29,942 bases of DNA from a virus (taxonomy: Duplodnaviria; Caudoviricetes): IMG/VR virus record IMGVR_UViG_3300033402_000046, positions 1 through 29,942 of that record. One strand, written 5' to 3'. The position numbers and the translations under genes were made by a program. The notes beneath the pieces are model-generated. The model had not been told where the DNA came from. It made no database searches and saw nothing but the letters and a program-made list of their open reading frames with translations. Position 1 is the stretch's first letter. The number at the start of each line of letters is the position of its first letter. This document shows positions 9,565 through 29,591 of the stretch, piece by piece.

Positions 9565-10637
9565 ATGGCATTTGTTGAATCGGCATTAACGTGGGTTGAC
9601 ACAGGGGCAGTTGCGTATCCAGCGTTGCACCAGAAAATTATAGAGCTTACAATGCCAGCACTCGTCGTCAAAAAGCTGTTTCCAGAGTTCCCGCTGGTTC
9701 AAGGCAGAACCGCAACGTTTGTGAAGCAAAACGGCAGCAGAGCAGCAGCAATCAGCCAAATCTCTGAGGGAGCTGAAAGTGTTAATCGATTAAAAACATC
9801 AGCATATCCCGATGGATTTTACGCCGTATACAGAATTTACTGTGACACCGTACAAGAAAGGCTTACGCGAACGCATATCACGTGAAAACATTGAAGACCT
9901 CTACATTCCGATAATTGAGGACCAACTTCGACGTGTAGCCCGAAGAATGGCTTTCACTATAGATAGCGATTGCATGACCGTTATTAATAATGCAGCAGGA
10001 AACAGTTTCGCAGGCACGGGCGCAAGCTTGGGCTCAACAGGCACCCCATTCACTATCGCAAATACGCTTGGCAGCAAAGACATCTTAGCAGCTAAAGCAC
10101 TGTTGGAACAAGTAAGCTTAATCGCTGACACGATACTGCTTAACCCAGTAAACGCAAGAGACGTAATGTATCTACCGCAATTTTCACTGTGGGCTCAGTA
10201 TGGCAACGAAGGCGGACAAGGCGTATCTCCCACTCAAACTGGTAAACTCGGCACGATCTTTGGCATGACAGTCTACGTTAGCATGGTTGTCCCCGCTGGA
10301 ACCGCATTTGTACTTAGCACTGGAGGTAACTTCAGCGCAGCGTATGCACCATTGGGCTTTTTCGTTAAGGTTGCAGGTTAAGGCAGCCGCGAAGTAAAAC
10401 GCCCATTGATGACTGACGTTGAAATTAAGAAAGAATTCGATTCCATAGATGTGTCGCTTACTACCCGATACGCACCTGTAATTTTCACGGGAGAATCGTA
10501 CAACTAAGGTCACGAACTGTTTGGCACCTAATGATTTGATAGTAATTAGAGTTAAAGTGACTTTGGCTTCTCACCAGAAACAGGAAGTGACGTATGGAGA
10601 AGCAATAGTAAAAGTAACGGGGTTAGCAACAAGTTAA
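9565..10637 (+). CDS. HK97-fold major capsid protein, spliced: join(9565..9777,9806..10367,10395..10480,10587..10637), 303 aa
   Basis: Exons total 912 nt in one frame; junctions read SEGAE/IPMDFTPY, GFFV/IKRPL, RYAPV/VTYGEAIVKVTGLATS*; T-rich terminator-like tract follows. Confidence 0.9.
9778..9805 (+). other. BHB-type mRNA intron 1 of MCP (28 nt)
   Basis: GGGA/TCCC exon helix, GCTG/CAGC 4-bp central helix, bulges AAA and ATA, GTGTT/AACAT intron helix. Confidence 0.9.
10368..10394 (+). other. BHB-type mRNA intron 2 of MCP (27 nt, contains in-frame TAA)
   Basis: TTTT/AAAA exon helix, TCGT/GCGA central helix, bulges TAA and AGT, GGTTGC/GCAGCC intron helix. Confidence 0.9.
10481..10586 (+). 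other. BHB-type mRNA intron 3 of MCP (106 nt)
   Basis: TACGCA/TG(A)CGTA exon helix, CCTG/CAGG central helix, bulges TAA and AAG, TTTT/GAAA intron helix then a long rod. Confidence 0.87.
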
Positions 10638-10651
10638 ACTGAAATATCGAC

Positions 10652-10678
10652 TATTCTTTTCATTTTCCATTTTTGTTT
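10652..10678 (+). terminator. Archaeal oligo-T terminator-like tract after MCP
   Basis: tattcttttt cattttccat ttttgttt just after the spliced stop at 10637. Confidence 0.55.
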
Positions 10679-10707
10679 AAAAGCAGTTCATATCAGGAAG
10701 GAAAAAA

Positions 10708-17782: not shown

Positions 17783-17842
17783 AAGTCCCTTAAAAGTCCC
17801 TTCAGAAGGACTTTAAAGTAACATTGTAATCGAGGTGAGAAA

Positions 17843-18256
17843 ATGTCTACAACTACTCCGATTCTAAGTAGAAATGCAGTTGTCCAGGTGGCGGGAACAG
17901 CTATTGGCTATTTGACGGATTTCACTATGGATGCTAAGGCTGAGCTTATCAAGGAATATGTTTGTCAGTCTGTTGCGACTCCGGCGTTTACGGCTAGTGG
18001 TAACCAGTCTTATACGTTTAAGGCTTCAGCGCTTTATGTTCCTTCGCTTTACGCGGCGCTTCTTAATGATGTGCTTAATGGCACGTTGGTGACGGTTATT
18101 TGGGGTCCGCAGGGTACTTCGTCGGGTTCAGGTACGCCTAAAATCACGTTGAGCAATGTTGTTTTGACGGCTTACAGCGTTAAAAACGGGCAGAAGGGCA
18201 CTATTGCCAACGATATATCTGGTGAAGCGCAGACTGTGGCGGTAAGTACGTTCTAA
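17843..18256 (+). CDS. Tail tube (major tail) protein 1
   Basis: 137-aa beta-rich protein before chaperone and tape measure; GAGGTGA RBS; T-rich tract after the stop. Confidence 0.75.
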   Translation: MSTTTPILSRNAVVQVAGTAIGYLTDFTMDAKAELIKEYVCQSVATPAFTASGNQSYTFKASALYVPSLYAALLNDVLNGTLVTVIWGPQGTSSGSGTPKITLSNVVLTAYSVKNGQKGTIANDISGEAQTVAVSTF

Positions 18257-18306
18257 GAGTTTCTTTGTTTTTATTTTGTTATTAACTTTGTGTGAGGTGA
18301 TTATAC

Positions 18307-18969
18307 ATGGCGACAACGACTCCTATTCTAAGTCGTAATGCGGTTGTTCAGGTGGCAGGGACCGCTATTGGTTTCTTGACAGATTTTACTCTGGATTCTA
18401 AGGCTGAGTTGATTAAGGAGTATGCTAATACGACTGGTGTGACGGCTTTGGCTACGGCGACGTTGACTTCTCAGGCTGTTTCGTCTATTACTGTTTCGCT
18501 TGGGGGTCTTGGTTACACTACGGCTCCCGCGGTTACTATTTCGGGTGGTGGCGGATCTGGTGCTACGGCTACGGCGGTTATAGCCAGCGGCGTAGTGGTT
18601 GCAGTTAACGTTACTGCAGGCGGAAGCGGTTATACGTCTACGCCTTCGGTCAGCATTGCAGCGCCGTCTTCTCCTATAGCGCCGTCAGCTCAGCCAAGCT
18701 TTATTGCCAGCGGCAACCAAAGCATCACATTCAAAGCTTCAGCGCTTTATGTGCCAGCAAACTACGCAGCATTATTAAATGATGTGCTTAACGGTACGCT
18801 TGTCACAATTATTTGGGGTCCGCAGGGTACTACGACAGGGCAGAATTACCCGAAAATAACCTTAAGCAATGTTGTTTTGACTGCGTATAGTGTGAAGAAT
18901 GGTCAGAAGGTCACTATAGCCAACGATATCAGCGGCGAAGCACAGACAATATCAACAGGCACATTCTGA
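18307..18969 (+). CDS. Tail tube protein 2, paralog with about 83-aa Gly-rich insertion
   Basis: Near-identical N- and C-termini to tube 1; insertion with two GG(S/L)GYT..P.V.I repeats. Confidence 0.75.
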
Positions 18970-25968: not shown

Positions 25969-25985
25969 AGTAACCAGATAATTCG

Positions 25986-28763
25986 ATGTTTGGTCAGTGG
26001 AGACTACGCAAAATGAGAAAAGAAAAATCTGACTTAACTCGTATCCGAAAGAAACTATCAGAACGCAGGGTTAATGGTGAATGCCGAATCGCGAGAAGGC
26101 GCGACGAGTTTTTCCGTATCAGGCGGTTCCGCAGAGTCTATGACAGGAATGCGGGCAAGTTCGCGTTTAACATTAGTTACGAGACGCATACTAAGCTGAC
26201 TCCGAGGAGCCTTGTTGTGGCTGAAGCGTTTGGCTTAGGCATTGACGAGGCACAGAAGTTTAAGGTTCTTGATGCCGAACTCAAAATCGGATCTCGAGAT
26301 ATTGTTTATATCACTGGTGATTCCCTCACAGGACAGTCAAGTATGTACTGGAAAAAAGATGGGCATCTAAAGTATGGAAATATGAAGGATTTATACGAGG
26401 ATTTTTACGCAAATCAAGCAAAATCCTCGTTTGAAATTCTGAGCTCCATCGACAAAAAGATAAAGGGATCAAGAATTTCATGGCAAAAAGTGTCAGATGT
26501 CAAACGCCAGGGTATAAAAGCAGTGTACGAGATTACGGTTTCCAGTGCTAAGAGTGTTGAGGTTACTAAAGATCACTCGCTCTTCTATTCCGAAGGATAT
26601 CAATTTTATCCTATAGACCTTTCAAGATTAAACACCGATAAAAGACTGGTTTGTTCTGCAAAACTCGACTTTTTTGAAGGGGAAGAAAAAAACGTAGAAG
26701 ATTACTTACTTGTACTTGGCGGGCTATGGATTGCTGATGGATCTTATTACAAGACAAGTATTCAAATTTCAACCGGAAATAATGAAAGCATATTATCGTT
26801 TCTTCAGGCTATACCAAGGTTTGTCACAAAAACAGAACGAATAGCGAGATTTATCATGTCTAATCCTACGCTTGGCAACAAGGAGGTAAGTAGGAAAATT
26901 GGTGAGAGCCTACTTGATGTTCGAAATGCACGCCATTTGTTGCCACGTTATGCTATTAGATCAAACAGAATCCATATTTCCATCAAGAAAAGCGGAGATG
27001 CCAGCGTTTTTAACAAGGGTCTTAAAGAGAAACTAGTTGAGCTAGGTTTTCAAGGAAACTGTTACACAAAAAGAGTCCCAAGTTGGCTATTTACTGCAAG
27101 TAAAAGACAAATTGGCCTATTTTTGAAAGGATACTTTTCGGGAGACGGAAGTTTTCATACAAAGGGAAAAGATCGAGTCATTGTAGAGGCTGCATCAGTT
27201 AATGGAAACCTCTTGAAGGATATTCAAACTCTTTTGGAAAGAATCGGTATTCAAGGTTGTATTAACACCGGAATGCACAAACAGAAAACCGGCTTCACAA
27301 CTGCACACCGTAAAATTAAGATTGCAATTGAGCGAAGGACGTGTATTGAAAAATTTCTAGCAGATATTGGATTCATTTATCCAATAAAGAAAGAGCTAAT
27401 TTTTATCCTTAAAAAAGAAAAGTCCGTAACTTTAAACCAATTAATGACACGAACGGTTAAAGAAATTAAATACATCGGTGACAAAGAAGTCTTTGATATT
27501 TGTGTTCCTAACTCTCAATGTTTCATCGCAAACGGAATACTATGCCACAATAGTGGTAGCGGAAAGAGCGTTTTGCTACGAGCAATTAAGGCAGATTTGG
27601 GTGACGAAGCCATCGACTTGTCAGAGGTTGCAGTAGACCCGGATAAGCCTTTAATTGAAACGGTCGGCGACACAGTTGAAGAAGGCTTAGAGTTGCTAAG
27701 TAAGGTTGGTTTGAACGATGCTTTTCTTTTCCTACGTACATACAGCCAACTAAGCGACGGTCAGAAGTACCGTTACAGAATCGCCAAGCTGATCGAGAGT
27801 GGGAAGCAGTGGTGGCTGATGGACGAGTTCGCTGCATGCTTAGATAGGGATACAGCTAAGATTATTGCGTTTAACTTGCAGAAAATCGCGCGTCAACAGG
27901 GCAAAGCCGTAATGGCAGCTACTACACATGGAGACTTGTTTGAGGACTTAAATCCCAGTGTGCTTGTTCATAAGCGGTTTGGGGAAGAAATCCAAATCAA
28001 CTATTATCCAAACAGACTAGCCTCTGAGTGTAGCCTAATTCGTGAGATGAAGGTTGAAGAGGGAAACAAGGAAGATTGGCATAGACTTAGCGGTTTCCAT
28101 TATCGAGGGCACAATGTTGCAGTTCCCCGAAAAATCTTCCGACTATTAAGAAATGGAGAGCTCTGTGGCGTTATAGTTTATAGTTATCCTCCGCCAAGCT
28201 GCTATGGAAGACGTCTAGTGCTTCCACGCATGACAATCCGAGAAATAAACAAACAACTAAGCATTATTAGCCGAGTCGTTATCCATCCAAAATACCGAAC
28301 AGTCGGCTTAGGCGCCAAACTAATCCATGAAACCCTTCCTCTAGTAGGCACGCCTTATATTGAGATGATTGCAGTCATGGCGAAATATAACCCGTTTGCA
28401 GAAAAGGCAGGAATGCAAAAAATAGCTGAACAACAAAAGGTTGAAAGCGTTTCGGAGGTCTCTACAGTGCTCTTAGAGTTGGGTTTTGACTCGCAACTCT
28501 TAGGCAGTGAACGCTATGTCAAGGGAAGACTAGAGAGCTTGAGCTCGGAACAAATAGATGAGCTTAAAGCTGCATTCATAAGGAATAAACATCCGCGGTT
28601 CAAGAAGGAGTTTGCCATAAGTCGACATCAACCATTTGGCAAAACATCGGACTACGTTGCCTGCATTAAGAGTGCGGATCATGTGAAAATGGCAAAGCTA
28701 GTCAAGCTTGCTGGAATGCTTCTTCAAACTAAAGTTTATCTGTTTTGGCAGGCTCAAAATTAA
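25986..28763 (+). CDS. ABC-type ATPase fused to GNAT-like acetyltransferase, intein-containing
   Basis: Walker A GD[intein]SGSGKS, signature LSDGQKYR, Walker B WLMDEF, ATTH; GNAT ISRVVIHPKYRTVGLGAKLI. Confidence 0.88.
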   Translation: MFGQWRLRKMRKEKSDLTRIRKKLSERRVNGECRIARRRDEFFRIRRFRRVYDRNAGKFAFNISYETHTKLTPRSLVVAEAFGLGIDEAQKFKVLDAELKIGSRDIVYITGDSLTGQSSMYWKKDGHLKYGNMKDLYEDFYANQAKSSFEILSSIDKKIKGSRISWQKVSDVKRQGIKAVYEITVSSAKSVEVTKDHSLFYSEGYQFYPIDLSRLNTDKRLVCSAKLDFFEGEEKNVEDYLLVLGGLWIADGSYYKTSIQISTGNNESILSFLQAIPRFVTKTERIARFIMSNPTLGNKEVSRKIGESLLDVRNARHLLPRYAIRSNRIHISIKKSGDASVFNKGLKEKLVELGFQGNCYTKRVPSWLFTASKRQIGLFLKGYFSGDGSFHTKGKDRVIVEAASVNGNLLKDIQTLLERIGIQGCINTGMHKQKTGFTTAHRKIKIAIERRTCIEKFLADIGFIYPIKKELIFILKKEKSVTLNQLMTRTVKEIKYIGDKEVFDICVPNSQCFIANGILCHNSGSGKSVLLRAIKADLGDEAIDLSEVAVDPDKPLIETVGDTVEEGLELLSKVGLNDAFLFLRTYSQLSDGQKYRYRIAKLIESGKQWWLMDEFAACLDRDTAKIIAFNLQKIARQQGKAVMAATTHGDLFEDLNPSVLVHKRFGEEIQINYYPNRLASECSLIREMKVEEGNKEDWHRLSGFHYRGHNVAVPRKIFRLLRNGELCGVIVYSYPPPSCYGRRLVLPRMTIREINKQLSIISRVVIHPKYRTVGLGAKLIHETLPLVGTPYIEMIAVMAKYNPFAEKAGMQKIAEQQKVESVSEVSTVLLELGFDSQLLGSERYVKGRLESLSSEQIDELKAAFIRNKHPRFKKEFAISRHQPFGKTSDYVACIKSADHVKMAKLVKLAGMLLQTKVYLFWQAQN
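26322..27551 (+). mobile_element. Intein (410 aa) with LAGLIDADG homing endonuclease
   Basis: Starts SLTGQS, block B VTKDHSL, LGGLWIADGS and FLKGYFSGDGS, ends VFDICV...FIANGILCHN followed by Ser. Confidence 0.95.
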
Positions 28764-29513: not shown

Positions 29514-29591
29514 GGGCCCGTGGCTCAGTCAGGCTAGAGCGGCGGACTCTTAAACCGTAGGTCGCGGGTTCAATTCCCGTCGGGCTTGCCA
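29514..29591 (+). tRNA. tRNA-Lys(CTT), intronless, CCA encoded
   Basis: Cloverleaf: acceptor GGGCCCG/CGGGCTT, D arm GCTC/GAGC, anticodon CTT at 29549-29551, T arm GCGGG-TTCAATT-CCCGT. Confidence 0.88.

Follow-up and report, generated by a model that had tools for sequence, protein, structure and literature searches.

A 27-nt insert carrying a stop codon in a viral capsid gene: a probable host-spliced bulge–helix–bulge intron

The capsid gene of the virus studied here is interrupted by a 27-nt insert that carries an in-frame stop codon, which raises the question of how a complete capsid protein can be made from it. The window, i.e. the whole stretch of DNA that was analysed, is the entire virus record, a linear sequence of 29,942 nt that is ~87% complete. 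Terminase, portal, capsid and tail-like proteins are encoded in it, and the terminase and portal genes, which lie upstream of the capsid gene, are both intact. The capsid frame around the insert matches PF25209 and the PHROG major head profiles. An uninterrupted homolog (P0016) has a predicted HK97-type capsid fold (model pLDDT 65), and a Foldseek comparison of this model with phage capsids gives an E-value of 4.6e-13. On the basis of the profile matches, the fold of the homolog and the gene context, the interrupted gene is the HK97-fold major capsid protein (MCP) gene of a head–tail virus. Our reading of the insert, to which we give a probability of roughly 0.8 from sequence comparison, is that it represents a bulge–helix–bulge (BHB) intron spliced by the host, that it is likely the remnant of a nuclease-bearing mobile intron, and that its stop codon has likely been selected.

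The insert was placed by spliced alignment to a profile of 56 uninterrupted homologs, in which an intron is allowed anywhere and which is blind to BHB motifs. This alignment removes exactly 10368–10394, in phase 1 and with no equivalent placement, and restores an Ile that 90% or more of these 56 homologs share. Two further introns are found by the same alignment, both with BHB ends. The gene is thus laid out as follows.

9565..9777, + strand: MCP exon 1, from the spliced alignment
9778..9805, + strand: MCP intron 1, 28 nt, BHB, without internal stop, from the motif-free spliced alignment
9806..10367, + strand: MCP exon 2, from the spliced alignment, with the PF25209 match
10368..10394, + strand: MCP intron 2, 27 nt, phase 1, splitting an Ile codon A/TA, from the motif-free alignment, the BHB fold and the relatives
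10395..10480, + strand: MCP exon 3, from the spliced alignment
10481..10586, + strand: MCP intron 3, 106 nt, BHB ends, five capsid-frame stops, from the motif-free alignment
10587..10637, + strand: MCP exon 4, holding the true stop, from translation of the joined exons

The four exons joined encode 303 aa, while retention of intron 2 gives 262 aa. Intron 1 is absent as DNA from related contigs in public runs, and intron 3 is skipped as DNA in a related contig. An 18-nt in-frame insertion near 10212–10229 in exon 2 was considered as a further intron, but it has no BHB and is taken as a protein indel. No BHB was found nested inside intron 3, and no BHB intron was found in those other window genes that have homolog coverage among the fetched loci.

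The insert and its flanks can be folded into the following elements.

10354..10361, + strand: 5′ arm of the exon–exon stem, pairing with 10396–10404, from the fold
10362..10368, + strand: 5′ helix strand TCGT (exon, 10362–65) and 5′ bulge TA^A (10366–68), from the sequence
10369..10388, + strand: intron stem GGTTGC (10369–74) / GCAGCC (10383–88), 6 bp with an 8-nt loop, supported by covariation
10379..10381, + strand: capsid-frame stop TAA in the loop, from the sequence
10389..10395, + strand: 3′ helix strand GCGA (intron, 10389–92) and 3′ bulge AG^T (10393–95), from the sequence

The four-pair helix contains one G–U pair and is flanked by two 3-nt bulges on opposite strands. The intron stem also contains one G–U pair, and the exon–exon stem TTTT (10358–61) / AAAA (10396–99) is extended by GGGC (10354–57) and GCCC (10401–04). 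The minimum-energy fold of 10350–10407 is this BHB, with −20.6 kcal/mol and a z-score of −3.05, and only 1 of 200 shuffles folds as well. All the stems, bulges and the TAA described in the initial annotation are present where it had put them. The intron ends derived from the alignment coincide with the BHB cut sites, which follow base 2 of either bulge. When the + strand was scanned over 30 kb for strict BHBs, by criteria chosen after the motifs were seen, two motifs were returned, both in the MCP gene; 12 dinucleotide-shuffled sequences give 0.25 on average. A loose scan, with 396 candidates on one strand and 179 on the other, tells nothing by itself. Because the strict criteria are post hoc and the loose scan is rich in chance matches, the motif-free placement is the stronger evidence. 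With placement and fold in agreement, 10368–10394 is very probably an enzyme-spliced BHB intron in a viral capsid mRNA.

A comparison with related capsid proteins points in the same direction. Among the best 120 of 227 protein matches, 92 run through the site uninterrupted (91 by pattern and P0029 by eye), 19 break off at the site, three have a stop-free in-frame insert and six are without the motif. The uninterrupted proteins bear out the earlier prediction of a spliced FFV-I-KRPL junction. Capsids ending at VKVAG, or holding nine extra residues, had been named as evidence against an intron. Proteins ending at VKVAG or VKVAS exist (P0001, P0002); these are not shorter capsids but arise where a gene caller has run into the same intron. 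Extra residues are found in three of the 22 listed proteins interrupted at this site (P0033, P0037 and P0072, with stop-free inserts), so for these three the second observation named does occur. The 19 proteins that break off are listed by gene callers as truncated capsids and would thus be mis-annotated.

At the DNA level, loci with a capsid match were collapsed to 148 distinct genes with an alignment score of at least 450. Fractions in this set are not population frequencies, because it is enriched for intron-bearing genes. There are 58 insertions of at least 10 nt, 42 with and 16 without a BHB. The reading frame is broken by 41 of the 42 BHB insertions, whereas of the 16 others 15 have a length divisible by three and contain no stop. 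One gene, L193, has a 38-nt frame-breaking insert at a neighbouring site that fails the BHB test, and it is counted against the BHB rule. In a few relatives the best BHB was 1–2 nt off the alignment cut, and the cut was moved onto the BHB. BHB introns occur in 35 genes and at seven sites, and 25 of the 148 genes have one of 25–663 nt at the site of intron 2. On a capsid tree of 136 spliced proteins the presence of an intron at this site changes at least 14 times, nine of them forced by well-supported branches, and a gene with a long intron (L195) is 97.6% identical to an intronless one (L106). This patchy presence fits homing, loss of the intron ORF and precise intron loss, and each change on the tree may be a gain or a loss. 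At the intron 2 site, L152:1296-1325 is a 30-nt stop-free BHB insert that a gene caller translates into ten additional residues; introns of this kind thus go unnoticed in proteins that look intact. Some five codons upstream of intron 2 lies a second site, occupied in L206:8503-9296 (794 nt) and in L201:4550-4596 (47 nt, similar ends); sites that neighbour each other could undergo co-conversion, which has been described for rRNA introns. Intron 3 of the window, which contains a long internal hairpin, was seen in none of the other genes in the set of 148, although close to its position P0037 has a 10-residue insert without a stop.

The structure is conserved at the intron 2 site. All four helix pairs are kept in 20 of 20 distinct junctions. 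In the intron stem, five of the six pairs have changed on both sides among 14 relatives; 97.2% of cells are paired, a value reached in none of 500 shuffles, and slid controls give 41–58%. The first six inner pairs are paired at 0.925, against 0.686 when permuted. The exon duplex is stronger in intron-bearing than in intronless alleles (median −11.2 kcal/mol, n=25, vs −5.4 kcal/mol, n=120), and the stronger outer stem of the intron-bearing alleles is built by silent exon positions. The downstream exons are without stops in 25 of 25 genes, and a comparison of the 40 spliced codons past the site with L013 gives 15 synonymous changes and one non-synonymous. By these codon comparisons, the exons downstream of the intron 2 site are under purifying selection.

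Three relatives have long introns at the same junction, of 649 nt (L168), 534 nt (L195) and 663 nt (L210), each with an ORF of 159–202 aa. These ORFs encode cysteine-rich (zinc-finger) repeats and a C-terminal domain with profile matches to Hjc-type nucleases at E 1e-4 to 2e-3. Foldseek on a predicted model of an intron ORF gives no match at E 0.001, and a wide structure search with the model gives no Z above 5.7, I-Ssp6803I scoring Z 4.8, tied with unrelated folds. From the motif and the weak profile matches the ORFs likely encode Hjc-like nucleases. Other long introns encode different proteins. The ORF of L206, at the other site, is Vsr/DUF559-like. At the site of the window's intron 1, a 643-nt BHB intron (L203:5394-6036) holds a NUMOD3-bearing ORF, which continues the frame of the capsid exon upstream of it without an intervening stop. 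In three of the five long introns the ORF ends in the downstream exon. The L195 intron (L195:6301-6834, 534 nt) is open in one frame throughout, so a circle formed from it on excision would lack any stop in this frame; on unspliced RNA, the stop of this ORF is supplied by the first bases of the next exon.

A transition from long to short forms can be followed in one family, where L188, L189, L192 and L197 have introns of 49–50 nt that consist of both ends of the L168 intron, without its ORF. The 27-nt intron of the window is too short to encode a nuclease and can therefore only be a remnant or a passenger. No homolog of the relatives' intron ORF was found in the window. Pattern scans of viral contigs found no long form with the ends of the window intron's own family; of the hits for family members, 12 of 119 and 5 of 7 are capsid loci and the others are chance. 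Since no long form with its own ends was found, the origin of the 27-nt intron has to be judged from the other intron families that occupy this site. By this extrapolation it is likely what is left of a larger mobile intron with a predicted homing nuclease gene.

What then is the role of the stop codon in the loop? A capsid-frame stop is present in 28 of 30 distinct short introns, against eight and nine in the other two frames and 13.9 expected from loop shuffles; these counts are non-independent draws from a locus set enriched for intron-bearing genes. Counted by intron family, 13 of 15 have the stop where 8.6 are expected (P 0.003). The 11-member family to which the window intron belongs uses TAA (nine), TAG (one) and TGA (one), placed 8, 11 or 14 nt from the 5′ cut, i.e. 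with shifts of 3 nt, and followed by 12–15 nt. Changes before the stop thus keep the frame and those after it do not, which points to selection on termination itself. The initial annotation had tied the stop to the length of the intron, a multiple of three, so that retention would truncate the protein. Selection for a stop is supported by the counts, but the link to length is not, because a stop is carried by 20 of the 21 short introns that are not multiples of three as well as by eight of the nine that are, and stop-free multiples of three exist. Stop-free cases are L152 (30 nt), intron 1 of the window (28 nt), and P0033, P0037 and P0072 (read-through); P0004, P0036 and P0051, judged by their tails, also have no internal stop.

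One alternative accepts the spliced BHB intron but regards its stop as a neutral leftover of a nuclease-bearing ancestor or of an AU-rich loop. We consider it unlikely, though deserving attention. The deletion junction of the L168 family falls at the old stop, stop-free introns survive (among them L152, P0033, P0037, P0072 and P0004), and introns that are not multiples of three would terminate within a few codons regardless, all of which favour it. Against it stand the excess across the families and the pattern in the 11-member family, where the loop varies freely while the stop only swaps between the three stop codons and moves in steps of 3 nt. From this pattern, the stop in the loop has likely been kept by selection. 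In four of the five long introns the ATG of the nuclease closely follows a capsid-frame stop, at a distance of −1, 12, 13 or 20 nt, so unspliced RNA is likely the nuclease message in the long forms. The earlier suggestion that unspliced mRNA is kept non-productive may thus hold for the mini-intron, but not for the nuclease-bearing forms.

The splicing enzymes would have to come from the host, and no EndA match was found in the window. Exon 2 of the window retrieves four genome loci, all in Bathyarchaeia assemblies and up to 88% identical. Because of these assemblies we take Bathyarchaeia as the host; the virus probably infects this group, a link made via proviral relatives (83% coding identity to L013), not via a spacer match. 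EndA and RtcB are encoded in all five tested Bathyarchaeia-class genomes, each of which also holds related proviruses, and four of the five give two EndA matches.

These elements can be combined into a possible mechanism. EndA of the host would cut both bulges behind their second base, RtcB would join the exons, and with all three introns removed the 303-aa capsid protein would be made. Long introns would move by homing, and their nuclease would be made from unspliced RNA once translation of the capsid frame has ended at the intron stop. Later the nuclease ORF would be deleted, while the splicing ends and the stop remain. In the mini-intron, unspliced or half-cut RNA would then give the 262-aa fragment, which is without the last three predicted strands. 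The stop would thereby avert a capsid lengthened by nine residues, a tail read in the wrong frame or, when only the 3′ cut has been made, a message that has no stop. As the insert breaks the capsid frame and is predicted to fold as a tRNA-splicing signal, the virus likely needs host RNA splicing for its shell. More speculatively, and with the odds against it, host tRNA splicing could act as a switch of the capsid gene, with translation of unspliced RNA stopping inside the intron and, in the long forms, yielding nuclease, and with spliced RNA making capsid. Mini-introns might then protect their allele against nucleases brought in by co-infecting relatives and make virion production conditional on the splicing capacity of the host, the stop being selected to end translation ahead of the 3′ cut site whatever the frame.

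Three other explanations do without enzymatic RNA splicing. It is highly improbable that the ribosome skips the insert, by Val-to-Val translational bypassing or by read-through. The insert does hold a stop and a hairpin, with in-frame Val codons on both sides, but a Val-to-Val hop would lose the conserved Ile, inserts at this site belong to all three length classes and reach 663 nt, and what is conserved is the BHB geometry at both ends. Equally hard to maintain is a capsid pseudogene of a decayed provirus, or an assembly error, for which one could cite the three interruptions in one gene and the linear, incomplete record. All three interruptions have BHB ends, the codons past the site are constrained as described above, distinct genes from many samples are interrupted at the same site, and a contig of run X1, which may be the source sample, is identical to the window over 9699–10700. 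Removal of the insert at the DNA level, as the intronless alleles that occur as DNA in close relatives might suggest, or self-splicing as a group I or II ribozyme, is the least credible, since the insert ends have no direct repeat (the placement is unique), 27 nt is far below the size of such ribozymes, and Rfam finds only a tRNA in the window.

Very few cellular cases of enzyme-spliced introns in archaeal mRNAs are known. Yokobori et al. (2009, PMC2738675) described spliced BHB introns of 16–44 nt in the cbf5 pre-mRNA of crenarchaea and proposed that they may be deletion derivatives of ORF-bearing introns, with proof needing an ORF-bearing example. The series from long to short introns that their study calls for is supplied by the capsid genes, where ORF-bearing and short forms share one site. 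In contrast to cbf5, as presented there, the capsid case is viral, with three introns in one gene and seven sites in the family; splicing was demonstrated for cbf5, whereas the capsid introns are known from their sequences. The same text cites Peng et al. for putative introns of 12 bp that an archaeal virus carries, with their splicing undemonstrated. Like the capsid inserts they are short and lie in protein-coding genes of an archaeal virus. They are in frame, however, and may not need splicing, whereas the capsid inserts break the frame and covary as BHBs. In Haloferax, the HVO_1309 mRNA has a BHB intron in its 5′ UTR that is cut in vitro (Schwarz et al. 2020, PMC7714728), and this report names cbf5 as the only other mRNA case. 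There too an mRNA serves as substrate of the splicing endonuclease, as is predicted for the capsid, but the intron lies in a cellular untranslated region and breaks no reading frame, while the capsid intron does.

The closest parallel is found in archaeal rRNA, where some BHB introns encode homing endonucleases and others are remnants reduced to short hairpins (Jay and Inskeep 2015, PMC4496867). Both systems share long nuclease-encoding and short hairpin forms at common loci, the BHB core, processing by EndA and RtcB (predicted for the capsid), a patchy distribution and sites a few bases apart. The rRNA introns encode LAGLIDADG proteins, whereas those of the capsid genes are Hjc-like, Vsr/DUF559-like or NUMOD3-bearing; the capsid introns are in translated viral mRNA, and their reading-frame stop is without a counterpart in rRNA. 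A review places BHB introns mainly in rRNA and tRNA genes (PMC8598171). We found no report of BHB introns in viral protein genes in the literature searched, which covered few subscription journals, and the words 'intron' and 'splic' are absent from the main text of PMC10541130, PMC11705971 and PMC13573593, which treat Bathyarchaeia or archaeal (pro)viruses.

From the sequences compared, the capsid introns have the testable features of archaeal BHB introns, and what would be new is the viral mRNA setting, their multiplicity, the non-LAGLIDADG nucleases and the selected stops. Group I introns with homing endonucleases are found in phage protein genes; they are mobile and self-splicing, with a PD-(D/E)XK or related nuclease. 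The capsid introns would resemble them as mobile introns in an essential viral gene, with a cycle of invasion and ORF loss, but they contain no ribozyme core and would need a protein enzyme of the host. An excess of stop codons has been described for retained introns in eukaryotes, and the excess in the capsid introns echoes it in a lineage without a spliceosome. If our reading is true, viruses depend on the tRNA-splicing machinery of their hosts, and BHB introns colonise protein genes by homing. At 27 nt, the substrate is small enough for a direct assay.

Three other features of the window were observed. The 929-aa frame at 25974–28763 contains an intein and a LAGLIDADG domain inside an ABC-type ATPase-like protein, and it has ~1230 nt extra compared with L006. 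At 17822–18969, homologs of ~140 aa match twice, which suggests a duplicated gene or domain. A tRNA-Lys(CTT) gene at 29514–29591 lies near the end of the record and is possibly an integration site.
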